Virus record (IMG/VR): IMGVR_UViG_3300032046_004423
Coordinates: 95,358 to 109,607 of that record
Length of the DNA stretch: 14,250 bases
DNA from: a virus
Taxonomy: Duplodnaviria > Heunggongvirae > Uroviricota > Caudoviricetes
Reading direction: 5' to 3' (one strand)
In this document: positions 208 to 14,141 of the stretch, piece by piece
How positions within the stretch are numbered: the first letter of the stretch is position 1
Layout of the letters: every line of letters starts with the position of its first letter
The notes under the pieces: generated by a model
Told to the model about the DNA's origin: nothing
The model's input: the letters and a program-made list of their open reading frames with translations, nothing else
Databases searched by the model: none
Made by a program: the position numbers and the translations under genes

Positions 208-389
208 AGTTTATTAACCTGCTCCTTGAAGTCAGCGAGCATCTGGCTAACATCATTAGTATCCTCAGGATATAGTGCTAGTTCAAGAGTTCCAGTTGAG
301 TATCTTGTTAGGGCTACAAACAATCCTTCTCCAAACTTCATTACTAGGTGACTCCCGCTAACTTTAATCTCTAACTGCCTTTTTGGCAT
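204..389 (-). CDS. Hypothetical protein, 61 aa
   Basis: AGGAGG 7 nt before ATG (inside the radical SAM 3' end); stop coupled to the glycosyltransferase start. Confidence 0.7.
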   Translation of the reverse strand: MPKRQLEIKVSGSHLVMKFGEGLFVALTRYSTGTLELALYPEDTNDVSQMLADFKEQVNKL

Positions 390-1449
390 TCTTACCTCCT
401 ATAAGCATTCGTGGGTGTTTTAGAAAGTATAGTATATAAGGATAGAAGCTAGTCTCAAAGCTCCAGCGAGTACCCCATGCATTTAGGCACCCTTGGCAAT
501 TCCTGACTATTCCTCGAACTCCTACTGCCCTAGGGCTGTGCCAGAGTTCTGTGGGGGAACTTTCTCTAACATTACCCGCTTTAGTATCCCAAAGACTCAG
601 ACAAGGTACAATATCACCATTACACTGCAGCGCACAGAATGTATCCATAGCAAAACAGTGAAATTTGATAGGTTTGCCTGCCAGCCATTTAAGCCATAGT
701 TCACGGAGAATCGGGTACGGTAATGACTCAACAGCTTTAACCATAGAACCATTATTGCTAGCTAAATCCTTGCCTATATTATCGTAGAATGAGGACTGGC
801 TGTACCACTGCACAAGAAGTTCTATCCCCAGACTTTTAGCATATGTCTTGACATCATCCAGATAAGGTAGTGTATAGTTGCTAAGCGTAAAACCAAATAT
901 AGAGGATACCCTTTCATTCCCGTACTTCTTACTCAGAACTATAAGTTTATGAGATAATCCGTCTATCTTTTCAAAATTACCCTTAACGCCCCTTATCAAA
1001 TCATGACCTTCTCCTACTGCATCTAAAGATAATCCAACTCCCAAGTTGATATTATGCTGAATTGCAAACTCAACTGCACTCATCGCTCTATCAGGTAACA
1101 AGCCATTAGTACTTAAGGTTAAGTTAGCATTAGGAAGAGCTTTATGTTCTGCTAGAAGAATCTCATTGAAATCATCCCTGAGGGTAGGTTCACCCCCAGC
1201 ATTTAGTATGCACCTTACATCCCTAAAAAGTGGGTCACTAAGAGCCTCCTCTATTTCCTCAGGAGTTAATTCATTACCAACTGGTTCTTTACGCCATATA
1301 TCACAGTGAATGCAACGGGAGTTACATCTATCAGTAACCCCAAACCACAGCCATCTCGGTCTGAGTGAATAGCCTATAGCTCGCGGGACTAGATTCTTAA
1401 GCCCGTATCCTAAGTCTGTTAAGCCTTGTGTGATATACTTATTCATCAT
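364..1449 (-). CDS. Radical SAM protein with C-terminal SPASM/twitch-like domain
   Basis: CxxxCxxC motif (TDRCNSRCIHCDIW), GGEP and STNG motifs, C-terminal C-x7-C...NGDIVPC...GNV...CQGC Cys cluster. Confidence 0.92.
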   Translation of the reverse strand: MMNKYITQGLTDLGYGLKNLVPRAIGYSLRPRWLWFGVTDRCNSRCIHCDIWRKEPVGNELTPEEIEEALSDPLFRDVRCILNAGGEPTLRDDFNEILLAEHKALPNANLTLSTNGLLPDRAMSAVEFAIQHNINLGVGLSLDAVGEGHDLIRGVKGNFEKIDGLSHKLIVLSKKYGNERVSSIFGFTLSNYTLPYLDDVKTYAKSLGIELLVQWYSQSSFYDNIGKDLASNNGSMVKAVESLPYPILRELWLKWLAGKPIKFHCFAMDTFCALQCNGDIVPCLSLWDTKAGNVRESSPTELWHSPRAVGVRGIVRNCQGCLNAWGTRWSFETSFYPYILYFLKHPRMLIGGKNAKKAVRD

Positions 1450-2090: not shown

Positions 2091-2435
2091 CTATGATAGT
2101 ACCTTCTGGAAGATAGATACGAAGGTCATCACGAGTCCCCATACAAACATAGCCATTAAAGGGGTCCAAATTATCCACTTAACATAAATCCAGCCTCCCT
2201 GTATAAAAGCAAAGTCCCAAATAGCTGCCTTAAATAGTGCTCCAAAGTAGTTTGGAACAAAAGCGATTATATCAAGCATACCCCAAGACTCCTCACTTCC
2301 TACTTGCCTCCAAAGAAGTAAGGTATTAAGCGTACTTTGATGACTTGAACCAATTGTTCCCTGTTCTATAATTAAGCCTAGTATAGTCCCAACTACAAAT
2401 AAGAACACAAAGAAAGCTATATATTTCGGTGGCAT
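2091..2435 (-). CDS. Small integral membrane protein, 114 aa (putative virion membrane protein)
   Basis: AGGAG SD; start overlaps the upstream stop (TAATG); 2-3 hydrophobic helices (YIAFFVFLFVVGTILGLII; WIIWTPLMAMFVWGLVMTFVSIF). Confidence 0.75.
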   Translation of the reverse strand: MPPKYIAFFVFLFVVGTILGLIIEQGTIGSSHQSTLNTLLLWRQVGSEESWGMLDIIAFVPNYFGALFKAAIWDFAFIQGGWIYVKWIIWTPLMAMFVWGLVMTFVSIFQKVLS

Positions 2436-5263
2436 TACATACTCCTTGAGGCAACTAGATATGCACTACTAAATATAGCATAAACTATAGGTATCCACCA
2501 ACCAACACCACCAGTACTAGCCCCCACTGCTAAGCCAATACCAGTAGCTATAACAGCTAATAGAGCACTACCAGTCGCGACTGCTACTCCTACTCCTATC
2601 ATAATAGCCGCAAATATCATTAGAACTTCATATAGTGTATTCGTAGTCCACCCAAGTTCAACAGCTGCAGGCTGAATCAAGTCGAAAGGAAGCCAGCCTA
2701 TAGTAGTAATTTCCTCCTCCTGTTCCCATAAAGTAACATTGCCAGGTAATGGGAGTACAACAGGTAACTCACCCTCTTCAGTTGGTGCTGATATATAAGT
2801 AGTCATACTTTTTAAACCTCCCACTACTATAGTCAGGTTAGAATTTGAACCCCAAGCTATAGTACCATTATTACTACCTACTCTATCAACCAAGGTTGTA
2901 CCACTTATTATCGTATTTGGTTGGAACAGTAATTTTTGCACCCCATTTACAGTAATGCTAGTATAGTTCATATAAGGCATTACATTATTCTCTATCAACT
3001 TCCAGTTAGTAGAGTTAGTAGCAACACTCCAGTTGCCTAGACTAGTACTGCCCCCTTGAGTACCATCTATCCAAATAGAAAGATATCCCCCATGCCCACT
3101 AGCAATTGTACCATTAGCCATTACTTTGATTATATGCTCTCCACCTGAAATCCCTGTAGCAGTAGCATTTATTGTAGTAGCCGTTTCATTACACCCAAAG
3201 TCAAATTCAAGGAGGTCGATGGAACTTGGATATGTAGCAGTATTGTGAAATTTAATCCTTGCTTTAGTCACAGAATATGTCCCCCCCAGACTCTTATCAA
3301 TCCACATACCATCTGTAAAAGTACCATTATAAACATCGTGCCAAGCACTACTATAGTATACATCTAAATCCACAAGGTCTACAAAACCATACGAGTTACT
3401 AGTATAAAATCTCAGCTTACTACAGTTTGTAGCAGTAATAGTTAGATTCAAAAAGCTTCCCCACGAACTCGCAGGGATATCAGGCTCAGCTCCCACTACA
3501 CCGAAAGCATCATCATAAGCATAAGTCTCAAGACCCCATTTACTATCTGCATCTTCATATCCAGTTGGTGAAGTCCAGTTTATAACACCAAGTATTGATG
3601 AAGTTATATTACCAGTACCACTCACATATGTTCTAATAACATTCTGCTTATAACTTAAATTCCCAACAACAGAGGTATTGACATATCCATCCTGCTCAAT
3701 AATAAAGTTATTTGCTAGTCCTAAAGTAGCACTATCTGCAACTGTTACATTACCACCATTACCAGTTATTAAACCAAATGAAGGATTAGCAGGACTATAT
3801 CCTGTCTCAAACCTATACTGCCTCTGCTGATTAGCTATCAAACTAGGAATAAAGACACCAATCTTATCATCAGCTACCATATATAATCCTTCAGTTGTCC
3901 CCTCAAACATCCTGGTATCTAAACAAGTACTACTCAAGTAACCAAAATCTATAGCTTGCGCGGTACCGAAAGGAACCAAAGCTGGAACACCAATTCTATC
4001 AGTAACCGATATATCAATTATGGTTATTTCAGACCTATAGGCCCCAGAACTATATATTACTGCCTCAGTAAGAAGCTGAACAGTAGTTCCATATCCCGTA
4101 CCTGCTGAGTTAATAGCATAAGCCCTAACACGGTAACTCGTATCTGGACTTAAACTAGCTATAACTTTAGTATAAGAACCGTTGCCAAAACTACCGCTAT
4201 CATAAGCTATGCTACTAGAAGTAGTAGGATCCCCCGAGGTACCCTCCATATAGCAGAAACCTCTACTAGTACAATTCTCACCACCAGTATCAGTGATATT
4301 TCCATTACCTGTAGCATAGGTTGTTCCTATACCAGATACCTCCTGAGTAGTAACTGTAGGTATTACTATCCCCGGTGTCTCATAACTTACTATAACTAAA
4401 CCGGAACCACCAGCCATACCAACCTGTAGTTCTCCACCACCACCCCCACCCCCACCTGTATTTACTGTTCCCGCTACTGCTGCAATTGGTCCACCACCAT
4501 CCTTACCTGCTCCTGCTCCCCCACCACCTAGACCACCAGGAGCTACAGCTGTAATTAAATTGTGGGTACTACCTCCACCACCACCAGCATAGTAAACAGA
4601 TGAACCAGAAATCGAACAAGCCGTCCCATTACCTCCCTTACCTCCCCCTGCTGCACCACCATTAGCACCAACTACACTAGCTCCACCTCCACCACCTGCA
4701 CAATGGTAGGTAGCGCCAGAGCCAGCCCCACCATCGTATCCCTGCCTCGGAGAAATATAGTCAGCATCCCCTCCAGCCCCAGATTCTTGCCCTCCACCTC
4801 CACCAGAACCCCCAGGAGATCCTGCATGGTTAATATAGTATCCTCCTCCACCACCCCCGATTGCAGTTAGTATATCAAATACAGAATTACTGCCATTAGT
4901 TCCTTGACCTGAACTTGCACCAGCACCTCCATCCCCAACTGTAACAGTTAATTCCGCTTCAGGTATAACAGTATAAGTCGCATTATAAATAAAACCTCCT
5001 GCACCACCTCCACCACCCTCGCCTGTAGTATCATTACCACCACCACCACCCCCACCTGCTACTACTAAAACTTTTACTGAAGTTACTCCAATAGGTACTG
5101 TCCATTTACCCCCAACAGGAGTAGAGTTAAAAGCTACAATAGTTTCTCCCGAAGCAAAAGTAGAACTGCTAGGAATAGCTAGTAACGTTCCAACTAGCAT
5201 ACCTACTATAAGTAAAGTTGGTAGTAGATACCCTACAGGTCTATTTAGCTTTTTAAACATCAA
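2435..5263 (-). CDS. Large secreted, C-terminally membrane-anchored Gly-rich adhesin/spike-like protein, 942 aa
   Basis: Signal-peptide-like N-terminus (...AIPSSSTFA|SG); Gly-rich domain about aa 42-294 (VKVLVVAGGGGGG...GGSGLVIVSY); FN3-like domain about aa 302-399 (PTVTT...ATGNGNITDTGG...RGFCY...YRVRAYAINSAGTGYG); DUF2341-like stretch (YRSEITI...LDTRM); beta-rich S/T/N region; C-terminal TM helices. GGGGAGG SD. Confidence 0.8.
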   Translation of the reverse strand: MMFKKLNRPVGYLLPTLLIVGMLVGTLLAIPSSSTFASGETIVAFNSTPVGGKWTVPIGVTSVKVLVVAGGGGGGGNDTTGEGGGGGAGGFIYNATYTVIPEAELTVTVGDGGAGASSGQGTNGSNSVFDILTAIGGGGGGYYINHAGSPGGSGGGGGQESGAGGDADYISPRQGYDGGAGSGATYHCAGGGGGASVVGANGGAAGGGKGGNGTACSISGSSVYYAGGGGGSTHNLITAVAPGGLGGGGAGAGKDGGGPIAAVAGTVNTGGGGGGGGELQVGMAGGSGLVIVSYETPGIVIPTVTTQEVSGIGTTYATGNGNITDTGGENCTSRGFCYMEGTSGDPTTSSSIAYDSGSFGNGSYTKVIASLSPDTSYRVRAYAINSAGTGYGTTVQLLTEAVIYSSGAYRSEITIIDISVTDRIGVPALVPFGTAQAIDFGYLSSTCLDTRMFEGTTEGLYMVADDKIGVFIPSLIANQQRQYRFETGYSPANPSFGLITGNGGNVTVADSATLGLANNFIIEQDGYVNTSVVGNLSYKQNVIRTYVSGTGNITSSILGVINWTSPTGYEDADSKWGLETYAYDDAFGVVGAEPDIPASSWGSFLNLTITATNCSKLRFYTSNSYGFVDLVDLDVYYSSAWHDVYNGTFTDGMWIDKSLGGTYSVTKARIKFHNTATYPSSIDLLEFDFGCNETATTINATATGISGGEHIIKVMANGTIASGHGGYLSIWIDGTQGGSTSLGNWSVATNSTNWKLIENNVMPYMNYTSITVNGVQKLLFQPNTIISGTTLVDRVGSNNGTIAWGSNSNLTIVVGGLKSMTTYISAPTEEGELPVVLPLPGNVTLWEQEEEITTIGWLPFDLIQPAAVELGWTTNTLYEVLMIFAAIMIGVGVAVATGSALLAVIATGIGLAVGASTGGVGWWIPIVYAIFSSAYLVASRSM

Positions 5264-6282
5264 CCAAACCTCCCCAGTATGAATGTAACACTAAACATTA
5301 GTACAGCCATAAAAGCAGCAATAAAGGTAATAGTCAAGGATAGTATCCCGATAATATTCCCAACAAATAAGAATGGTATACTTACAGCAATAGCTACTGG
5401 TACCGAGTGAGTAGCTATGAATATCCTACCAGCTAGAATAAAAAATAGGATAGACAAACCAAGCCCCCCTACTACACTACCCATCCCATTCTTTCCAGTA
5501 ACCCATACTCCCAAGCCCTCAAGTGCAGTTGCTAATCTAGCCCCCTCTCTACTTGTCAATGTATCCTGGTAAGTATTATTATATACCGGATCCGTATACT
5601 CAGGGTAAGTAGAAGCTACCTGAAAGATATCTGGGCATATACTATCTAGTCCAGGAATTGCCTCCTTGAACTTTACCATCCCAACAGAATTAAGCTTATC
5701 ACCCGAAGAGAGTAAAGTTATATTTCCCCAAGCATCCTCAAGTGATCCAGCCAGCACAATACACCAGTCAGCTAAATATAGTCTCGTTTCAGAAACAGAA
5801 CCCCCCTCAAGCCAGTTACTAGCTGTTAAGGTTACAGTTCTCATATTAGCACCCTCAGTTAAAGTAGGGAAATACGAGGGATTACCTACAACCCTAACTT
5901 TTAGCTCGTCATCTAACTCATAACCAAAACTAACTACCTGAGCTGCAGTTAGATACACCGAAATAAAGTTATACTGGTAATAATTAAGGGGCATATCAGG
6001 CCCCTTAATAGTATTATTCCAAATGCCAACTAGGAACGTATCCGAAGGATCCTCCCCAGGGTCAACAGTATAATTTAGGTCATACTCAACGACAAACAGC
6101 ATATCGCCACTTTCCCATAGTCCCCTGTAAGCTTTAACAGACTCAATATATATACTGTTAGGATTTCCTATAGTAGCATAAGCTGGTGTAGCTGCAAATA
6201 GTACTACTACCAGAACTACTAAAGGTAGTAGTTTATAGAGCAAATTCCTTACTCTCAAGTTCAACTCCAGACTGTCTAACAT
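5260..6282 (-). CDS. Secreted/membrane protein, 340 aa, with signal peptide and about three C-terminal TM helices
   Basis: KLLPLVVLVVVLFAATPAYA| resembles a signal peptidase I site; C-terminal hydrophobic helices; stop overlaps the start of the 942-aa gene. Exact start uncertain (overlaps the upstream gene by 50 nt). Confidence 0.78.
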   Translation of the reverse strand: MLDSLELNLRVRNLLYKLLPLVVLVVVLFAATPAYATIGNPNSIYIESVKAYRGLWESGDMLFVVEYDLNYTVDPGEDPSDTFLVGIWNNTIKGPDMPLNYYQYNFISVYLTAAQVVSFGYELDDELKVRVVGNPSYFPTLTEGANMRTVTLTASNWLEGGSVSETRLYLADWCIVLAGSLEDAWGNITLLSSGDKLNSVGMVKFKEAIPGLDSICPDIFQVASTYPEYTDPVYNNTYQDTLTSREGARLATALEGLGVWVTGKNGMGSVVGGLGLSILFFILAGRIFIATHSVPVAIAVSIPFLFVGNIIGILSLTITFIAAFMAVLMFSVTFILGRFG

Positions 6283-6556
6283 AACCCCTTCCAGTTAAAG
6301 TATCGAGTGCCCCTCTTATCTGCTCACTTGTTAGACCAGTAGCTACCGGTAAACTATCAAGAGAAGTATAACCCTCAATTACTGCATCATACACAATTCT
6401 CTCCTCAGGGGTCCATCCAGCAGTTAGAATTCTCCTAAACATACTACCATACTGTGTAGGAGTAAGCGACTGTACAAATCCAGGTACTCTCATAAAGTTA
6501 TTTAACTGACGTGGGTCAACTCTCGAGAACTCATCACCTTTAGCAACATACGGCAT
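6233..6556 (-). CDS. Winged-helix protein, paralog 4 (107 aa)
   Basis: AGGAGG SD; C-terminal EERIVYDAVIEGYTSLDSLPVATGLTSEQIRGALDTLTGRGYV, a wHTH-like pattern shared with three other genes in the window. Confidence 0.8.
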   Translation of the reverse strand: MPYVAKGDEFSRVDPRQLNNFMRVPGFVQSLTPTQYGSMFRRILTAGWTPEERIVYDAVIEGYTSLDSLPVATGLTSEQIRGALDTLTGRGYVRQSGVELESKEFAL

Positions 6557-6578
6557 TTTAACTAATTACCTCCTATAT

Positions 6579-7115
6579 TTACATTAACCACTTTCTTTTC
6601 CTTTTCCTTCTCTCTTCTGCGTCTACAGTAGTATCCCCAGTAGTACTAACTAGTCCCTTTTTCTTTAAGTTTTCAATAGCAATATCAATTTGGTCCCTAG
6701 TTAAACCAGTAACCTGCGTCATATCCTCATAAGTATTGTGGCCCTCAATTATTGCATCAAGGACTTTATATTCATCCGTCGCCTTAGATAACCAGCTGCC
6801 ATCCTCCAACTTAATATTTTCACCCCTAAACTCATTGAAACCCTCAATGCCTAGTCTGCTTAACATCTCCTGCTCGTCAGGAGGTAGAGCATTGTACTCT
6901 TCTCCTTTAACAAACTCCTCATTGGGTAGTACAACATTTCCTTTAGCCACCCACTCAGTTTTCCCTCTCTCTTTACCTATATATCCACCCCAACTCTGAG
7001 CTGCCTCAGGACTAATATCCTCCCTAACTGCTGTACTAGTTAGAAAGGTTTCTAATTGCCTCGGATCAATACCTTTTACCACAAACTTCACCTCCTTATC
7101 TTCCTTACTTACCAT
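6579..7115 (-). CDS. Winged-helix protein, paralog 3 (178 aa) with basic C-tail
   Basis: DEYKVLDAIIEGHNTYEDMTQVTGLTRDQIDIAIENLKKKGLV; ends EERRKRKRKWLM; shares the DPRQL motif with the 107-aa neighbour. Confidence 0.8.
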   Translation of the reverse strand: MVSKEDKEVKFVVKGIDPRQLETFLTSTAVREDISPEAAQSWGGYIGKERGKTEWVAKGNVVLPNEEFVKGEEYNALPPDEQEMLSRLGIEGFNEFRGENIKLEDGSWLSKATDEYKVLDAIIEGHNTYEDMTQVTGLTRDQIDIAIENLKKKGLVSTTGDTTVDAEERRKRKRKWLM

Positions 7116-7303
7116 AGTTTAGTCTTCCCTTTCTTTCCAGGTATATAAAGGTGTGCATTAGTAATAAGGGAATCAGGGTGTCTTACTCCTTTAGGTACCA
7201 ACTTCCCAAAAACCTTAAGAACCTTCCCAACGTTCTCTGTAGACTTCCTTCTTCTCTCTTCCCTAACAGTTTTTATATACTCTCTCATCAACTGTTCATC
7301 CAT
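7109..7303 (-). CDS. Small basic hypothetical protein, 64 aa
   Basis: Fits the gene packing (7-nt overlap with the downstream gene, abuts the upstream stop); K/R-rich. Confidence 0.65.
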   Translation of the reverse strand: MDEQLMREYIKTVREERRRKSTENVGKVLKVFGKLVPKGVRHPDSLITNAHLYIPGKKGKTKLW

Positions 7304-7507
7304 CTACTTAACCTCTCTTTCCTCAATAACCAAGCCTTCAGGCAGAATAATAATTGGGTTACCTTGTCTTACAAGTGAGCGCTCAACAACATAACCTCTC
7401 TTCTCCTCAACTATCTTTGCAGAAAAACCTCTTTCAAGAATCTCTCTAGCTTTAGAACCAGCTCCGCTTCTAGACCAGGCGAATTTAACTGGGATAAACT
7501 CAAGCAC
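7304..7507 (-). CDS. Hypothetical protein, 67 aa
   Basis: Same strand, tight packing, purine-rich AGAGTAGATAGG upstream of the start. Confidence 0.6.
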   Translation of the reverse strand: MLEFIPVKFAWSRSGAGSKAREILERGFSAKIVEEKRGYVVERSLVRQGNPIIILPEGLVIEEREVK

Positions 7508-7524
7508 CTATCTACTCTTTCAAC

Positions 7525-7794
7525 TTATAGATCTTCTGGCCTAGTTGGATTATAAATCCAATCAGGTTGACTTTCATACAACTCAGGATAAATTCTAAGC
7601 ATCAGCTTTATAAGATCCTCCTCCTGGCCAGAAAGCATTATTACCTCGTGATCTGGAATATCTATCTTACCTAGCTTCTCTACTAAACTCCTTGCTGCCT
7701 TCTCATATCCTCTAACTGGATGCCCCTTAACAAATTCTCTAAGAATAGGAAGAGCAGCCCTTTTTTCCTCTTTAAATACTGTCCAAAAGGCCAC
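7525..7794 (-). CDS. Hypothetical protein, 89 aa
   Basis: GTG start directly after the stop of a 32-aa basic ORF, GAGG 9 nt upstream. Confidence 0.65.
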   Translation of the reverse strand: MAFWTVFKEEKRAALPILREFVKGHPVRGYEKAARSLVEKLGKIDIPDHEVIMLSGQEEDLIKLMLRIYPELYESQPDWIYNPTRPEDL

Positions 7795-7893
7795 CTATCT
7801 GGACCTCAAGGACCTCAAAATACTTCTATGTTTAGCTTGGGCTCTTCTAGTGCTAGGTATCCTACTAAGTTTACTACGTTGCTTTCTCATCAT
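7795..7893 (-). CDS. Putative 32-aa arginine-rich, protamine-like peptide (not in ORF track)
   Basis: Manual translation MMRKQRSKLSRIPSTRRAQAKHRSILRSLRSR*: 9 R, 3 K, no acidic residues. Fills the gap between two genes; TAG abuts the next GTG; only a weak AGGA SD. Confidence 0.5.
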   Translation of the reverse strand: MMRKQRSKLSRIPSTRRAQAKHRSILRSLRSR

Positions 7894-7906
7894 AATCCTA
7901 ATGCTC

Positions 7907-8182
7907 TCACGGTAGAGTTAGTGTACTCTGCGTTTCCTCCGAAGCAGCACACTTAGCGTGAACTAGTCCCCCCACTCTAGGCTGAAAAATTATATCCCTA
8001 ATAGTAATATCTTTATCACAGATAGGACAGGTCCCAATATACTCCCTACACTTTAAGCAAGTATACTCAGTCCCAAAAATGGCACGCAAAAATCTCTCCT
8101 CAGGAGTACCTCCCTCAACATAACTTGCCCTACTGCACTTAGAGCAAATAGTTCTTATCTTTCCTTTAGGCCAACCTCTCAT
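7907..8182 (-). CDS. Zinc-finger protein, 91 aa (two predicted Zn sites)
   Basis: CSKC...CLKC...CPIC...HAKC; start overlaps the upstream stop (ATGA). Confidence 0.75.
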   Translation of the reverse strand: MRGWPKGKIRTICSKCSRASYVEGGTPEERFLRAIFGTEYTCLKCREYIGTCPICDKDITIRDIIFQPRVGGLVHAKCAASEETQSTLTLP

Positions 8183-8433
8183 ACTTTATGAACTGCCCTT
8201 CTCACTCCTTTATCTAAGGACTTATAACGCCTTATTAACTGAGCTTTTACCATCTGCGTTGCCCTACTAGAATTACTTGTAGGTAACTCAAAAATTTCAG
8301 CCTTTTGACTCAAGTTAGCATCATCCATATAGTGCTGAGCTAGCAACTCAGAAGAAAAAGACCTGCCTCCTATAATGACAGGTCTTAAACTACCATCCTT
8401 TGCCCTAGTATAGTCAACTACCCAGTAGTACAT
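8179..8433 (-). CDS. Hypothetical protein, 84 aa
   Basis: ATG at 8433 overlaps the TGA of the hidden 45-aa ORF (TGATG), so it is preferred to the track's GTG at 8436. Confidence 0.7.
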   Translation of the reverse strand: MYYWVVDYTRAKDGSLRPVIIGGRSFSSELLAQHYMDDANLSQKAEIFELPTSNSSRATQMVKAQLIRRYKSLDKGVRRAVHKV

Positions 8434-8570
8434 CACTTTACTATAACTACTTTACCAGGTTTAGTAGAGTCAATTAGCATCAATATCCTACTACAACGGC
8501 AAAAACCAATGCTTGACCAAAAAGCTACCAAACTACCACAGTCTGGACACTTAAGAATTACAAGACTCAT
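8433..8570 (-). CDS. 45-aa Cys-rich Zn-ribbon-like protein (not in ORF track)
   Basis: Manual translation MSLVILKCPDCGSLVAFWSSIGFCRCSRILMLIDSTKPGKVVIVK*; AGGAGG directly upstream; CPDC...CRC; stop coupled to the next ATG. Confidence 0.75.
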   Translation of the reverse strand: MSLVILKCPDCGSLVAFWSSIGFCRCSRILMLIDSTKPGKVVIVK

Positions 8571-8579
8571 ACCTTCCTC

Positions 8580-11500
8580 CTACTTTACTAGTTTAACTCT
8601 CCTTGAAGTTTGCCTACCCAACTTTATACCCTTTACAGTTGGAGTTCTTAATACCTCCCTAGCCCCATATCTTACTGCTTTTTTACCCGCAAGCTGTATT
8701 TTCTTTTTCCTCATACTTAAAGGCTCAGGCATATTTAGTATCAAACCAGGTACCACCCATTTTGCTCCACTTAATACCTTACCAATACCACCCCCACTAT
8801 AGCCTCCACCCATACCAGGAAATCCTAGAGGAGGTGGGAATGGTAAAGGTAGTCTTGGTAAGCCATAACTAGGTAGGACCGGTTCAGGTTGAGTTATACC
8901 AATTTTAGGTGGAGATATAACAGGAGGTGTAGTCGTAAAGCCAACTACTACTGGAAAAGGTTCTGGAACCACCATAGGCTTAGGTATTACAGGTTCCTCA
9001 GTTAGGGCCTCTGGCACAATAGGAATAAGTAACTCAGATTCAGGCATTAGAGGATGGACTGTTACAGTCCCAGTAATAAGAGGTGTATAAATTCTAGGAA
9101 GAGTTACAACAGGTGTAAAAATTTCAGGTTCATGTTCTGGTTTAGCTACTCCAGGAATAACAAAAGGCTTACTAGGAATCTTTTCAGGCATAATAGGACT
9201 AAAAGGAGTTTTTATCCCAGGCTTAACTCTAGTAGGTATAGTAACTCCTATTCTAGCTGGAATAGTAAGTCTTGGGAGAGTTTTAGTCCAATCCATAGTT
9301 CTAGTTCCAACTCCAAGTTCTCCTCCCAGACCTCCCCAACTATATAAAGGACTACCATATCCTCCTCCTTCTAGAGGATAACTGAACTCCCCACTATACA
9401 GAACATCAGGACCTCTATATAAACCCCCACCCCCTTTTGTAGAACCACCACCAAAGGTCATACCACCTAGCCCAGGCATAGGTCCCCGCTCAAAAGGATA
9501 CCACCATTCTGGGATAGGTGGGCCCGACTTAGGCCCCCCACCTTTTCCATACCATTCCTCAACAGGCCACATAGAAACAGTTCCCTGAGCATAGGCTGTA
9601 GGTCCTTCTATAGGATAACTAGACTTAAGGAATTTATACTCAAGTGGGGATAGAACCTCCCCATATCTAGTAAAAGCAACTTCTTTAGGAGCACCCAACG
9701 ACTCTGTAAGACTAACAGGTTGAGGTCTATAAGCTGCAACAGGTTTAAAAGGAAATAACTCACTAGAAGGCCTATAGATATCACCCGAAAGCTCCTCAGC
9801 AGTAGGTAACTTTATCTCTTCCGTATAACGAGGCTTCTCTCCCTTACTAAGTTTTACCAGCTTTGCCCCGAATCCAGTAACTCTAGTATCACTCCTAAGA
9901 ACAGTACCAATAGTCTCTGAGATTGGTACTATCCTTCCTCCAAGAGGAGTAATAGCTTCCCCATAACTAATCTTTCCTTTTGCTACTCCCAATCCCTCAG
10001 CTACTAACTCAGGACTAACTTTTGCTCCTATTCCTTTACTAGCCCAGAACTTCTCAATTCCTCTTAAACCAACTGCTCTAGGTCCAAAGAGACTTCCTTG
10101 TAGTCCAGGAAGTAAGGTAAATCCTACAGTACCTATCTTATGTCCTATACCTGGCTGCTTCCATGTTAATACACCAGCAGCAGTTACTGGCCCAAAATAA
10201 GGAAATAGTGTAGTAAGAGACTTAGCCCCATACTGGGGATATAACTGTGAGGCAACCGTAGAAGGAGCAAGTATCTGATACATACCCCCTACTAGAAACT
10301 TAGGTACTGTAGGCCACTCCTGCATCTTCTCTAAAGGAGGCATAAGATACCTCTCCGTTCCTTTTCCCAAAGCACCTACTATGCTAGGCTGATACTGCAT
10401 CTCACCCAAAACACTCTCCCTAATACTTGCCATCACTTGTGGGTCATAATCTAAACTAGCCTGGGCTAAAAACTCATCCTTTCCGATATCTAATTCTAAT
10501 CCTTGGGCAGCAGCTTCTCTAGCCTCCCGGTCATATAGAGAAGACGCATCACTCATATACTCCTTATAGCCTTGACTATACTGAGAACTACCCTTATACT
10601 GCTCCCATGCCTTAGCAATATTACTCTCAATAGGTTCCGGTTCAGATAAGGCACCCAGTGCAGTCGCACTACCAATAGTCGCAACTGTAGGGATAGTAAG
10701 TACAGTTGTAGTTGCTTTTACCCCAGTTAAGAATCCAGATAATGGTCCAGCAAACCTCCCAAGACTTGGAGAAATTTCAATAGGTGCCCTTCCCCATTTC
10801 AGGAATGATGATACTGGCCCAAGTGCTTTAACTAAAACTGGAGCACCCATAGCCTCACCAGTACCAAGTGCAAGCCCTCCAGCAAATATCATAGGCTGAA
10901 TAGGAGACTCCTTCCACCATGCCTTAGTCTGTAACATATTGGGACTCGGACTATAACCTCCACCCCAACTACCAGGAGGAGAAATACCCCAAAGAGCATT
11001 TCTTACTTTTTCTAACCAAGTAAATCCAGGTTTAGAACCATAATACTCATCTGCGTGAATCACCGGTAAACCAAACTGACCTGCCTGGGATAAACCAGCA
11101 AGAGAAAAGAGATTAACAGGATGACCTCCAGCTAACTCTATCTGCTTAGTAGGAGCCATAGTTCCAGACCTATATTCTAAGGCTTTATCAACATCCTCCT
11201 GTCTAAAACCAAAACTGACTAACTGAGTTGGGGTTAACTCACTTAATGCTCCAACTAAATTATAACCCCCTCCACTAGTCTTATAAGATTCAATCTTAGC
11301 TTCCTCAGGAGTTACTATCTGCCAACCTCCCTGCGTATTCCTATAAGTAATACCACCTTGGTTAAGATACTCCACACCCCCACTCTCAAAAATTCCCTCA
11401 GGTCCCTTAACCAAATAACCCGTAGTAGGTCCAGTTATAGTAATAGGAGTTTCCCCACCATGTTCCTGGTAGTAACTAAGAAAAGCTTGCTTTTCAGCCT

Positions 11501-11741
11501 CAGTAGGCTCACCAGGTACTACTACAGTAGGAGGTTTATTACTAGTACCTCCACCCAATCCCGAACTAGGAATTACTTGAATCCCATGAGCTTTTGCAAA
11601 TGCAAGAACCTGTGCTGGTCCCCAACCACCACTTGTTACTAGACTACCCCCTCCAGTAACTGGATGGTACTCAATTCCATGGGCTTTTGCAAATGAAACT
11701 ACTTGGGCTTGAGTCCAACCACCACTAGTTACTTGTGCCAT
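8580..11741 (-). CDS. Large 1053-aa low-complexity protein (Gly-rich N-terminus, central hydrophobic segments, Pro-rich region, basic C-tail); putative internal virion protein
   Basis: AGGAGG SD with long (13-nt) spacer; uninterrupted ORF; no catalytic motif recognised. Confidence 0.8.
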   Translation of the reverse strand: MAQVTSGGWTQAQVVSFAKAHGIEYHPVTGGGSLVTSGGWGPAQVLAFAKAHGIQVIPSSGLGGGTSNKPPTVVVPGEPTEAEKQAFLSYYQEHGGETPITITGPTTGYLVKGPEGIFESGGVEYLNQGGITYRNTQGGWQIVTPEEAKIESYKTSGGGYNLVGALSELTPTQLVSFGFRQEDVDKALEYRSGTMAPTKQIELAGGHPVNLFSLAGLSQAGQFGLPVIHADEYYGSKPGFTWLEKVRNALWGISPPGSWGGGYSPSPNMLQTKAWWKESPIQPMIFAGGLALGTGEAMGAPVLVKALGPVSSFLKWGRAPIEISPSLGRFAGPLSGFLTGVKATTTVLTIPTVATIGSATALGALSEPEPIESNIAKAWEQYKGSSQYSQGYKEYMSDASSLYDREAREAAAQGLELDIGKDEFLAQASLDYDPQVMASIRESVLGEMQYQPSIVGALGKGTERYLMPPLEKMQEWPTVPKFLVGGMYQILAPSTVASQLYPQYGAKSLTTLFPYFGPVTAAGVLTWKQPGIGHKIGTVGFTLLPGLQGSLFGPRAVGLRGIEKFWASKGIGAKVSPELVAEGLGVAKGKISYGEAITPLGGRIVPISETIGTVLRSDTRVTGFGAKLVKLSKGEKPRYTEEIKLPTAEELSGDIYRPSSELFPFKPVAAYRPQPVSLTESLGAPKEVAFTRYGEVLSPLEYKFLKSSYPIEGPTAYAQGTVSMWPVEEWYGKGGGPKSGPPIPEWWYPFERGPMPGLGGMTFGGGSTKGGGGLYRGPDVLYSGEFSYPLEGGGYGSPLYSWGGLGGELGVGTRTMDWTKTLPRLTIPARIGVTIPTRVKPGIKTPFSPIMPEKIPSKPFVIPGVAKPEHEPEIFTPVVTLPRIYTPLITGTVTVHPLMPESELLIPIVPEALTEEPVIPKPMVVPEPFPVVVGFTTTPPVISPPKIGITQPEPVLPSYGLPRLPLPFPPPLGFPGMGGGYSGGGIGKVLSGAKWVVPGLILNMPEPLSMRKKKIQLAGKKAVRYGAREVLRTPTVKGIKLGRQTSRRVKLVK
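11568..11732 (-). repeat. Two-copy direct repeat (93-nt period) at the 5' end of the 1053-aa gene
   Basis: VTSGGWTQAQVVSFAKAHGIEYHP (aa 4-27) vs VTSGGWGPAQVLAFAKAHGIQVIP (aa 35-58); DNA shares gcttttgcaaatg and caaccaccact. Confidence 0.9.
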
Positions 11742-11758
11742 TTACGACTATTAACCTC

Positions 11759-12310
11759 CTATTTTAGATATCTAATAAACCCTTTCTTAACTAACTGAGA
11801 AAGTGCTCTTCCTACTTCCTCACCTGTTAAACCAGTAGCTATCTCTAACTGACTAGAATCAGTATATCCATCAACGATTGCTAAATAAACAGCTTTTTCC
11901 TCAGTAGGCATATTAGCTGCAGCCCCTCCCTGAAATGCCCTACTAACATCCTCTTCACCCCACTCATCTCCAGGTTGTAATACTGTTCCTAAGTAACTAC
12001 CTCCCCCAGCTACTGCCCTTTCCTCCTGTGTCATATTTCTCCACTCTTCTCTCCCCGCTATCTGTGTCTGCTCTGTTCTATAAAACGGGCTTGCCTCCAT
12101 CATATATGCTCTATTCGCGCCAGCAACCGCTGCACTCACCTCACAAGGTGATAGTCCAGCTGCTTCTGCTTGACTCTTTGCAGAACTAACTCCACTCTGC
12201 CAGTTCTGATAGTCCTGTTTCGCTGCATTTATACTTTGTTGGGCCTTTGTAGGGTTACTACCCCCAACAGGTCCCCCACCCAAACTAGAAGCAATATTTC
12301 CCCATGCCAT
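11759..12310 (-). CDS. Winged-helix protein, paralog 2 (183 aa), low-complexity N-terminus
   Basis: C-terminal MPTEEKAVYLAIVDGYTDSSQLEIATGLTGEEVGRALSQLVKKGFI. Confidence 0.8.
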   Translation of the reverse strand: MAWGNIASSLGGGPVGGSNPTKAQQSINAAKQDYQNWQSGVSSAKSQAEAAGLSPCEVSAAVAGANRAYMMEASPFYRTEQTQIAGREEWRNMTQEERAVAGGGSYLGTVLQPGDEWGEEDVSRAFQGGAAANMPTEEKAVYLAIVDGYTDSSQLEIATGLTGEEVGRALSQLVKKGFIRYLK

Positions 12311-12314
12311 AATA

Positions 12315-12890
12315 CTACGCCTTTATATAACCTTTACTAAGTAACCAGTGAAAAGCCCTACCTATCTCCTCATTTGTCAATCCTGTAGCTACTCCCAAAC
12401 TATCAGGACTAGTATAACCCTCCTGTATTGCCTGATAAACAGATTTCTCATTAGCAGGCATACCAGAAGGTATACCAACAGGTGTATCAGGCATCCGAGA
12501 TGCCTGACGGTTAGGCATAGTTCTAATCTTTAAATAGTTACCAGCTATTCCTCCTCCTCCCCCAAACTTTGGTAACAAACCACGCATAGACCCAGTTGAG
12601 ATTGCTACCCCTCCAGATATATTCCTAGCTGGTACTAACCTCAGCTTTGCCCCCTCCGACAAACCAGGTATTTTTTTACTACCAGCACTCCACTCATTAC
12701 TGGGCCTTCTTGCCTCTACCTCAGTAGGTTTTTCTGGGTGTGGAAAAGTCTTTACCCAACTAGGATTTTCTCCCCCCGGGCCAACAAAACCCCCACCTCC
12801 TGGTTTAGAATTTGAAGTTGGTGTTTGTGCTCCCAATCCATACCGTGGGTCCATATCATGAGCAAGTACTGCAGAAAGTTTACTTACCAT
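12315..12890 (-). CDS. Winged-helix protein, paralog 1 (191 aa), Gly/Pro-rich N-terminus
   Basis: AGGAG SD; C-terminal MPANEKSVYQAIQEGYTSPDSLGVATGLTNEEIGRAFHWLLSKGYI. Confidence 0.8.
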   Translation of the reverse strand: MVSKLSAVLAHDMDPRYGLGAQTPTSNSKPGGGGFVGPGGENPSWVKTFPHPEKPTEVEARRPSNEWSAGSKKIPGLSEGAKLRLVPARNISGGVAISTGSMRGLLPKFGGGGGIAGNYLKIRTMPNRQASRMPDTPVGIPSGMPANEKSVYQAIQEGYTSPDSLGVATGLTNEEIGRAFHWLLSKGYIKA

Positions 12891-12927
12891 TTCTAGTATC
12901 CTCCTATAACAAAATTTTTAATAGTAG

Positions 12928-12955
12928 AATGGGGAGTATATTTCAACTCCCCATT
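12928..12955 (-). terminator. Stem-loop after the capsid-like gene (terminator or mRNA-stabilising hairpin)
   Basis: Perfect 10-bp inverted repeat AATGGGGAGT (12928-12937) / ACTCCCCATT (12946-12955) with 8-nt loop, 12 nt past the TAA. No clean U-tract follows. Confidence 0.55.
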
Positions 12956-12967
12956 TACTGACTAGTG

Positions 12968-13133
12968 TTAACCCTGGCCTCCTATCCATGCTACTGCCCC
13001 TAATAGGATAACTGCGACGAAAACGTATGGCAGAACACCAACTAGAGCTGCTAAACCAGTAGGACTAGTAATAGCTGCAGTAGTCTGCAGGATGACCGGA
13101 ACCAGACTTACACCTACCACGATGGAAATCATG
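12968..13133 (-). CDS. Exon 2 of an intron-split small hydrophobic protein; putative spindle-shaped-virus-type major capsid protein (not in ORF track)
   Basis: C + ATG ATT TCC...GGT TAA encodes MISIVVGVSLVPVILQTTAAITSPTGLAALVGVLPYVFVAVILLGAVAWIGGQG*: two hydrophobic helices with a polar T/S/P/G linker. It begins right after the predicted intron omega-G. Confidence 0.75.
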
Positions 13134-13322
13134 CAACCTTATCCCAGGTTTTCCTGAGGGTTGGACTTTATCTTCACCCATTACTGGGTGTCCCGTGTAA
13201 AGTCTCTACACTTGCCTGTCTTTCAACTGCTAGCTCGGTATTACCATAAGTATCACTACCCTTAGGCTTCACCGACTTAGCGGGATTTATTACCTCTCAA
13301 TTACTCAAGAGGAGCACCACTT

Positions 13323-14072
13323 CTAGTATAAACCAAAGGCTTCTAGTTTTGCTAGAAACTTAGAACTATCAAGCCCAGTGTGCCTTCTAAGTCCAAGCTC
13401 ACATTCCCGAAGCACCAGGCATCTATAACCAGCCTCCCCATATAGATACATTCTGGCTACTTCCTCCAACTCATCCCTATGCCAGTAATCACCAAAAAGT
13501 TCAATGCAATCCTTTACACCGTCAGTTCTATAGAAATCAGGTACCTTTCCTGCTACTACTAGCTCACCCTCATTGAACTTCCACTTACCTGGACTTACAA
13601 AGTCTAGCAAATCCTTTAGCCAAGATTCGGGATAGTTAGGATGTAAACTACCAGCCCCAGACCTCATTGCAGCTATCTGGCTATTCTTAAACTCTGGATC
13701 TGACCACAGGTTATTATGAACCCTACTTAGCCTTTCCCTATAACCAGGCTGACTCCACATTTCCTTAGCAGTCCTGGAGAAATCCTCTGAGGACCTTGTA
13801 GATGGAACACCAAACTTCGCTTCTGAGATTGCATCTCCCCAAGTTATGTCTCTGCCTGTAAGAGCCTTAGATATAGCCTCATTTCTCTCAGCCGCAAACT
13901 CCTGCCAAGAACCCATAGACTCAAGAACGAGGTCAGAATAGATACTAGCATCTGGGAACATTGCCCGGTACTCAAGGACAGTACCTATTCCATGAGCAGA
14001 CTGTAGATGCGTACCAGTAATCTGTTCATAACTCAGACCACAAAGCCTGCACTCTACTAAGTACTTTCCCAA
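13323..14072 (-). CDS. Intron-encoded putative homing endonuclease, Vsr-like/EDxHD-type PD-(D/E)xK nuclease with N-terminal C2H2 Zn finger
   Basis: TTG start with GGGGG SD; CRLC...HLQSAH...EYRAMFP N-terminus; helical repeats (ISKALTG/ISEAKFG; WSQPGYR/WSDPEFK); C-terminal PNYPE...VPDF...IELFGDYWH...LVLRECE; lies between P1 and the ribozyme core. Confidence 0.82.
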   Translation of the reverse strand: MGKYLVECRLCGLSYEQITGTHLQSAHGIGTVLEYRAMFPDASIYSDLVLESMGSWQEFAAERNEAISKALTGRDITWGDAISEAKFGVPSTRSSEDFSRTAKEMWSQPGYRERLSRVHNNLWSDPEFKNSQIAAMRSGAGSLHPNYPESWLKDLLDFVSPGKWKFNEGELVVAGKVPDFYRTDGVKDCIELFGDYWHRDELEEVARMYLYGEAGYRCLVLRECELGLRRHTGLDSSKFLAKLEAFGLY

Positions 14073-14095
14073 CCATTCCCCCTAGATTGTAACCT

Positions 14096-14106
14096 GTAGC
14101 AGTCAT
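14096..14106 (-). other. Predicted internal guide sequence (IGS) of the intron
   Basis: Minus-strand AUGACUGCUAC is the exact 11-nt complement of the ligated exons GUAGCAGU|CAU. Confidence 0.65.
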
Positions 14107-14127
14107 TAAAAGTCGATGCCGATAAGT

Positions 14128-14141
14128 ACTGCTACTAACAC
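14128..14141 (-). CDS. Predicted exon 1 of the capsid-like gene (GTG TTA GTA GCA GT)
   Basis: GGGAGG SD 9 nt upstream of GTG; joins exon 2 in frame (GT|C = Val). The alternative junction GGC AT|C at 14116 is also in frame. Confidence 0.55.

Follow-up and report, generated by a model that had tools for sequence, protein, structure and literature searches.

A family of winged-helix proteins encoded among the structural genes of large uncultured viruses

The last 14.25 kb (positions 95358-109607) of the 109.6-kb IMG/VR record IMGVR_UViG_3300032046_004423, from an uncultured virus of sediment, hold four genes, P0001 to P0004, whose products end in a homologous domain of about 50 amino acids (aa). 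The genes stand in two pairs among genes of structural type within this stretch of 14,250 nucleotides (nt), which we refer to as the window, and they raise the question of what a set of proteins with a fold best known from DNA-binding regulators does in a particle-building module. An initial annotation of the window had suggested virion nucleoproteins or genome-tethering adaptors in preference to transcription regulators. We find that the four genes are paralogues encoding small cytoplasmic proteins in which a constant winged-helix domain is joined to an N-terminal part that varies, and that they represent a distinct family. The family has its own N-terminal extension, keeps a constant place in the structural module and differs in copy number from lineage to lineage.

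Four paralogues with a common winged-helix domain

The four genes were found where the initial annotation had placed them, all on the minus strand (Table 1), and they translate cleanly. Relative to that of P0001, the domains are 33-49% identical; the alignment has 11 invariant columns and matches the consensus that had been proposed, E..V[YL].A[IV].[ED]G[YH][TN]...TGLT.[ED][EQ][IV]..A[LFI]..L..[KR]G[YFL][IV]. With the search space scaled to the proteome of this genome, BLASTP linked every pair, P0003-P0004 most strongly (E 1.7e-13), followed by P0001-P0004 (4e-11), P0001-P0003 (2e-9), P0001-P0002 (6e-7), P0002-P0003 (2e-4) and P0002-P0004 (3e-3). A profile search of the whole 109.6-kb record returned exactly four copies of the domain, with no further match at E < 0.1. 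The ratio of nonsynonymous to synonymous substitution rates (dN/dS) was 0.15-0.48, against relatives as well as between the paralogues, and the four open reading frames (ORFs) are, therefore, real genes under purifying selection. Ribosome-binding sites (AGGAGG) precede P0001, P0004 and the gene for a 1053-aa protein, and P0003 starts 4 nt after the stop codon of P0004, which is also its nearest paralogue.

The proposal that each domain is fused to a different N-terminus needs a correction. P0001 and P0002 share the N-terminal motif [IV]DPRQLxxF, and P0004 has a degenerate MDPRY; otherwise, the N-terminal parts do differ, and P0003 is devoid of the motif. Those of P0003 and P0004 are rich in Gly, Pro, Ala and Gln and contain few hydrophobic residues. 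Residues 42-67 of P0003 (window 12110-12187) gave a weak second match to the family profile (domain E 0.07), which may represent the remnant of a second winged helix such as that of the two-domain proteins P0034 and P0051. The DPRQLxxF segment was also considered as a PCNA-box or clamp-binding motif, a candidate that was rejected, given that its spacing departs from that of the canonical motifs and that the segment is modelled as a packed helix.

The winged-helix fold of the domain was confirmed by the predicted structures. In the AlphaFold model of P0001 (predicted local distance difference test score, pLDDT, 74), three N-terminal helices lead into a complete winged helix, whose helices at 50-60, 69-73 and 77-90 and two strands form the three-helix bundle and β-hairpin wing of the winged helix-turn-helix (wHTH) superfamily. 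Residues 46-104 superimpose on Sul7s (7bzh) with a Z-score of 9.0 and a root-mean-square deviation (rmsd) of 1.4 Å over 55 aa, and on many MarR-type domains with Z-scores of 8-9 and an rmsd of 1.4-1.8 Å. Nothing follows the wing in P0001, and whole-chain Foldseek alignments to MarR proteins have an rmsd of approximately 10 Å. In the P0002 model (pLDDT 77), whose top match is likewise Sul7s (Z 6.9), the DPRQL helices lead into two helix-hairpin repeats and then the three HTH helices; wing strands are not modelled, and the chain closes with a basic C-terminal tail (RRKRKRKW). Its middle module gave no convincing structural match in searches with the whole model; no search was made with the module alone. 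The wing of P0003 and P0004 is incomplete because the chain ends 3-5 residues past the first strand (in P0004, 3 aa after the G-Y-I strand). Sul7s resembles the domain in consisting of little more than a single, stand-alone winged helix (about 59 aa), but with 11-16% identity and as a cellular chromatin-type protein it is similar at the level of the fold only. Foldseek searches of PDB and BFVD returned only generic wHTH entries (E about 0.05-0.3).

The likeness to DprA and TrmB domains noted in the initial annotation does not extend to membership, as all four proteins score below the Pfam gathering thresholds and no Pfam model reaches its threshold on any of them. DprA_WH (PF17782; threshold 22.9 bits) matched P0001 with 12.7 bits (E 0.14) and none of the other three, and TrmB (PF01978; threshold 25.6 bits) matched P0002 with 12.2 bits and, again, none of the others. 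The best model for all four, wHTH-PRTase_assc (PF24409; threshold 27 bits), gave 23.0 bits for P0002 and 14.2, 12.2 and 11.7 bits for the remaining proteins.

Distribution and gene context of the family

A search of 1.84 billion cluster representatives with a profile of the domain retrieved 223 clusters at E <= 1e-3. About 80 of the 150 best clusters belong to the same family, being either clear orthologs or proteins with a DPRxL motif 28-39 aa upstream of the domain; most of the approximately 80 carry [ILVMF]-D-P-[RK]-x-[LIV] at this distance, and the other matches are generic winged-helix proteins. We defined the DPRxL-wHTH family by this helix start 28-39 aa upstream (the distance is much larger in long forms) together with a gene adjoining that of a 340-aa protein. 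Both features are found in P0001 and P0002, and P0003 and P0004 belong to the family by virtue of the domain alone. The domain defines a large, unnamed, virus-specific protein family, with P0001 as its core member. The subfamilies include the P0001 type of about 105 aa, a 'WGG' type of about 100-114 aa, and P0002-type long forms of 145-264 aa with one to three helix-hairpin repeats (orthologs P0037, P0050, P0064, P0067, P0072, P0078 and P0095). A P0004 group contains P0003 and P0027, a 120-aa ortholog of P0004 that was missed by the word-indexed search and found by a full hidden Markov model (HMM) search. The two-domain forms are P0034 and P0051; in P0034 the extra, second domain scores above the thresholds for TrmB (38.2 bits against a cut-off of 25.6) and HTH_24.

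When viral contigs were scanned for patterns taken from the domain alignment and from P0002, no relative could be confirmed, and the viral-contig search with the 340-aa protein, and then with its alignment, led to a single contig, L005. With tblastn, P0001 and the 340-aa protein had no match in deposited phage and archaeal-virus genomes. A scan of GTDB genomes with the 340-aa profile revealed no provirus that would point to a host. Among the sequencing runs listed as containing the sequence, none was of RNA and the three of DNA were sediment metagenomes; two of these were compared, and they contained only short near-identical fragments.

All of the real genes of the window are on the minus strand. 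In the direction of transcription, an intron-split small hydrophobic capsid-type gene is followed by P0004, P0003, the 1053-aa gene, six small genes, a gene for a 64-aa basic protein, P0002, P0001 and the 340-aa gene, and then by the genes of a 942-aa Gly-rich protein, two small membrane proteins and a radical-SAM/SPASM enzyme. Last comes the start of a gene that runs off the window edge, a putative glycosyltransferase gene according to the initial annotation.

The window was compared with the related contigs L005, L006-L008, L009, L010, L011, L013, L014 (91 kb) and a contig of 34 kb. In every contig that was readable here (L005, L006-L008, L009, L011, L013, L014 and the 34-kb contig), the gene directly upstream of the 340-aa homolog is of the P0001 type or a two-domain form. 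The two-domain form occupies this place in L014, L013 has two tandem WGG-type genes there, and P0001 orthologs are at the same position in L005, L006-L008, L009 and L011. The P0001-type gene runs into the start of the 340-aa gene at every locus; in the window, the overlap is of 50 nt at the 3' end of P0001. The order [64-aa gene]-[0-1 extra wHTH gene]-[P0001-type gene]-[340-aa gene] is kept in L005, L006-L008, L011 and the 34-kb contig, and only its wHTH-to-340-aa part is visible in L009 and L013; wherever the sequence extends far enough, the 64-aa gene precedes the wHTH gene or genes. Furthermore, the motif PKG[VI]RHPDSLI..LY of the 64-aa protein is fused N-terminally to the wHTH domain in three separate clusters (P0134, P0149 and P0068), which suggests that the 64-aa and wHTH proteins act in one process or complex. 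A complex prediction for P0001 with the 64-aa protein scored 0.00, which we count neither for nor against binding. The fixed place beside the 340-aa gene in distant relatives, the overlap at its start and the fusion bear out the earlier assignment of the four genes, which are thus no stray regulators, to a structural module. It is the particle-building module of a group of large uncultured viruses whose capsid proteins are hydrophobic and of the His1 type.

The number of wHTH domains per module ranges from one to four, and the window has the maximum seen. Thus the fourfold expansion described in the initial annotation is correct for the window, but it is not a fixed property of the module, being the upper end of this range. 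The P0002 position is filled by an extra member in the window, L009, L011, L013 and the 34-kb contig, and is vacant in L005 and L006-L008. The capsid-adjacent position is filled in the window by P0004 and P0003 and in L010 by P0027 alone, directly behind the capsid gene; L005, L014 and the 34-kb contig have no member there, and in none of the four contigs is there a gene at the P0003 position. The stem-loop and T-rich run that separate the capsid gene from P0004 (Table 1) are conserved in L010 (385-410), with equivalents in L005 (about 490-525) and L014 (about 1545-1590), and P0004 and P0003, therefore, lie in the read-through part of the capsid transcript. The stem-loop is probably an attenuator, or else a terminator, that sets the highly expressed capsid gene apart and lowers the expression of the genes behind it.

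Possible functions of the winged-helix proteins

The explanation to which we lean, tentatively, is that the four proteins are morphogenesis adaptors or assembly factors that are co-expressed with the structural proteins. We propose such a role because the genes hold a fixed place in the structural operon, the P0001-type gene overlaps a membrane-protein gene, the domain occurs fused to the 64-aa protein and modular N-terminal parts are joined to a constant domain. The adaptor mechanism, the binding partners and a presence in the particle are what we infer from these observations. The common winged helix would dock on a single target, be it the viral DNA or a structural partner shared by the proteins, and the N-terminal parts, which differ, would bind different structural proteins from the neighbouring genes. 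In P0001 and P0002 these contacts would be made by the DPRxL helix bundle, in P0002 also by the helix-hairpin repeats, and in P0003 and P0004 by the low-complexity regions, which look disordered. P0001 would be made together with the 340-aa membrane-anchored protein, as the two genes overlap, and P0002, P0004 and P0003 would be lineage-variable additions to this core. Several points weigh against a role in assembly. The nearest structural neighbours are mostly DNA-binding regulators, and the threshold-passing extra domain of P0034 makes a regulatory role plausible. The fold itself does not distinguish DNA from protein binding. The residues conserved throughout the family (W48, Y56, A58, the EGYT loop, TGL, L87 and G91) are mostly core or turn positions, so that a conserved binding surface is only putative, and the link of family members to particles is drawn from gene context.

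One alternative, which we regard as somewhat less likely and as the main and a serious rival, is that the proteins are sequence-specific regulators of the MarR/TrmB/IclR type (Pfam clan HTH) that time or autoregulate late structural operons, with different operators for the different paralogues. It ranks as such because the nearest relatives of the fold are regulators and because the extra domain of P0034 is a bona fide TrmB domain that is also above the HTH_24 threshold. The family shares with these regulators the three-helix-plus-wing fold, and its TGL(T/S)...(V/I)..A(L/I)..L...G(Y/L)(V/I) pattern is their usual turn, recognition helix and first wing strand; there are weak Pfam matches to TrmB, MarR_2, HTH_Crp_2 and TFIIE_alpha, and the neighbours in the ESM Atlas are HTH_5, IclR and HTH_24 clusters. 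The exposed positions of the recognition helix, where Q and R are frequent, vary between the paralogues, as would be expected of diverged specificities. However, a fixed place in a structural operon and an overlap with a membrane-protein gene are both unusual for regulators, and the fusion of the domain to a structural-module protein in three clusters likewise speaks against one. The single-chain models of P0001 and P0002 show no C-terminal dimerisation helices of the MarR type, the domain is mostly acidic, P0003 and P0004 are without a full wing, and the DPRxL helix extension is the family's own. A repeat search of the window found no operator-like repeated or palindromic motif, and a scan for sigma-70 promoters was not above shuffled expectation. 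As bulk virion nucleoproteins that coat or condense the 110-kb genome in the manner of SSV1 VP2, the proteins fit poorly, and we consider this part of the initial proposal improbable. VP2, which is small and strongly basic, is encoded directly after the capsid genes VP1 and VP3 and expressed by read-through of the terminators T1/T2, a situation much like that of P0004 and P0003 behind the capsid gene; VP2 is variably present among SSV1 relatives, as is a wHTH gene at the capsid-adjacent position. P0004 is itself basic (isoelectric point, pI, 9.8) with a basic Gly-rich N-terminal region, P0002 and its orthologs have basic C-terminal tails, and the top structural match, Sul7s, is a small archaeal DNA-binding winged helix (PMC8998557). 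In contrast to VP2, three of the four proteins (P0001, P0002 and P0003) are acidic, with a pI of 4.8-5.1, and most family domains carry a negative net charge (mean -1.4 for 85 domains), which weakens the case for bulk coating or condensing of DNA. Moreover, the stem-loop behind the capsid gene suggests an expression below the needs of a stoichiometric DNA coat, the capsid-adjacent position is empty in most relatives, and two family profiles had no match at E < 0.1 among the six-frame ORFs of SSV1 and His1. The acidity is compatible with specific DNA binding or with protein docking; the recognition helix of CAP, for example, contains an acidic residue.

Alternatively, the domain might be purely a protein-protein winged helix, comparable to those of RPA32C, cullins and ESCRT-II, that recruits a host machine to the viral membrane proteins, for example one for membrane remodelling or secretion, during budding or extrusion. 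An acidic domain with a variable recognition helix would suit such a function, as would the constant pairing with membrane-protein genes and the tandem two-domain P0034 and P0051, reminiscent of ESCRT-II subunits, and the protein-binding winged helix of RPA32C matches with a Z-score of 7.7-7.9, nearly equal to those of DNA-binding ones. We nonetheless give this idea little credence, given that the similarity to any such family is no better than the generic fold level and that the host and the partner on which it depends would both be hypothetical. One could also envision two more novel roles. It is conceivable, if rather unlikely, that the proteins are modular winged-helix tethers that fasten a genome of about 90-110 kb to membrane-anchored tail and capsid proteins, the number of tethers varying between lineages; tethers of this kind would be a previously unrecognised class of internal components of spindle-type particles. 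In a more remote variant, the single or tandem winged helices would imitate ESCRT-II-like adaptors and recruit the host machinery for membrane scission.

Neighbouring genes and relation to known viruses

The features of the window are listed in Table 1 in the order of transcription.

Table 1. Position of the winged-helix genes and their neighbours in the window
Feature	Position	Strand	Description
3' exon of small hydrophobic capsid-type gene	12968..13132	-	Immediately upstream of P0004
GC stem-loop (GGGGAG...CTCCCC) with T-rich run	12931..12952	-	Between capsid gene stop and P0004
P0004, 191 aa	12315..12890	-	Basic, pI 9.8; Gly/Pro-rich N-terminal region; wHTH residues 142-190 (nt 12321-12467)
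P0003, 183 aa	11759..12310	-	Acidic, pI 4.8; Ala/Gln/Gly-rich N-terminal region; wHTH residues 132-182 (nt 11765-11917)
1053-aa protein	8580..11741	-	Tandem N-terminal repeat, Pro-rich region, basic C-terminal tail; follows P0004/P0003 pair
64-aa basic protein	7109..7303	-	pI 10.3; PKGVRHPDSLI..HLY.PG; overlaps P0002 start
P0002, 178 aa	6579..7115	-	Acidic body; IDPRQL motif, helix-hairpin middle, wHTH residues 111-168 (nt 6612-6785)
P0001, 107 aa	6233..6556	-	VDPRQL helix motif, two more helices, complete wHTH residues 45-104 (nt 6245-6424)
340-aa protein	5260..6282	-	Signal peptide, three C-terminal membrane helices; invariable downstream neighbour of P0001-type gene
942-aa protein	2435-5263	-	Signal peptide, Gly_rich_2 (PF21722, E 1e-27), C-terminal membrane helices; phrog_2295, E 3e-45
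Radical-SAM/SPASM enzyme	364-1449	-	End of structural module

Neither the 64-aa nor the 340-aa protein has a Pfam or PHROG match. The 64-aa protein has the invariant motif P.G.R.PDS...N.HLY.PG..G.T.L, conserved in L005, L006 and L011. Proteins of 759-961 aa are encoded directly behind the capsid genes of relatives, where the window has the P0004/P0003 pair and the 1053-aa gene. The N-terminus of the 1053-aa protein contains a tandem repeat of 31 aa, SGGW.QAQV.SFAKAHGI, at 11580-11640 and 11673-11733 of the window (80% DNA identity), and the protein shares with the P0002 orthologs and the 64-aa protein a basic or Gly-rich tail that closes with a few hydrophobic residues. In relatives, homologs of the 942-aa protein have Laminin_G_3 in place of Gly_rich_2, and the protein is probably a host-recognition protein with an exchangeable head. 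The radical-SAM/SPASM enzyme may modify a structural protein. Intact copies of the capsid gene in L005 gave subthreshold matches to His1_capsid (E 0.07-0.13), and in L014 two capsid-type genes (642-980 and 1116-1436) start normally and then enter unrelated sequence, which looks like further introns in a tiny capsid gene.

The order of the window from 5260 to 14141 parallels that of ORF21-ORF31 of His1 (L016 7341-13196), with a small two-helix capsid protein, membrane proteins and two proteins with a signal peptide and a C-terminal anchor; a glycosyltransferase would complete the parallel only if the last gene of the window encodes one. The His1 proteins, unlike this gene order, have no detectable sequence similarity to those of the window. 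As a fold the winged helix is thoroughly familiar, and archaeal viruses commonly encode small wHTH proteins. F-93 and F-112 of SSV1 are such proteins of a spindle-shaped virus, but their genes sit in early or regulatory parts of the genome and, as described above, nothing in SSV1 or His1 matches the family profiles. To our knowledge, no multi-copy wHTH family inside the structural module has been described for the known spindle viruses. Small wHTH genes of a spindle virus are also drawn on the map of NSV1 (PMC8491892), likewise in an early or regulatory part.

If the proteins are ordinary late regulators, the family is of modest interest. Little is understood of the way in which DNA is organised and anchored in spindle-type viruses, and it is puzzling how a capsid built from a hydrophobic protein of 60 aa could handle a 110-kb genome. 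Soluble, conserved proteins are few in the structural module, and the winged-helix family is one of them; P0001, together with the 64-aa and 340-aa proteins, provides a handle for biochemistry. In addition, the family is a sequence marker with which this virus group can be found in metagenomes.

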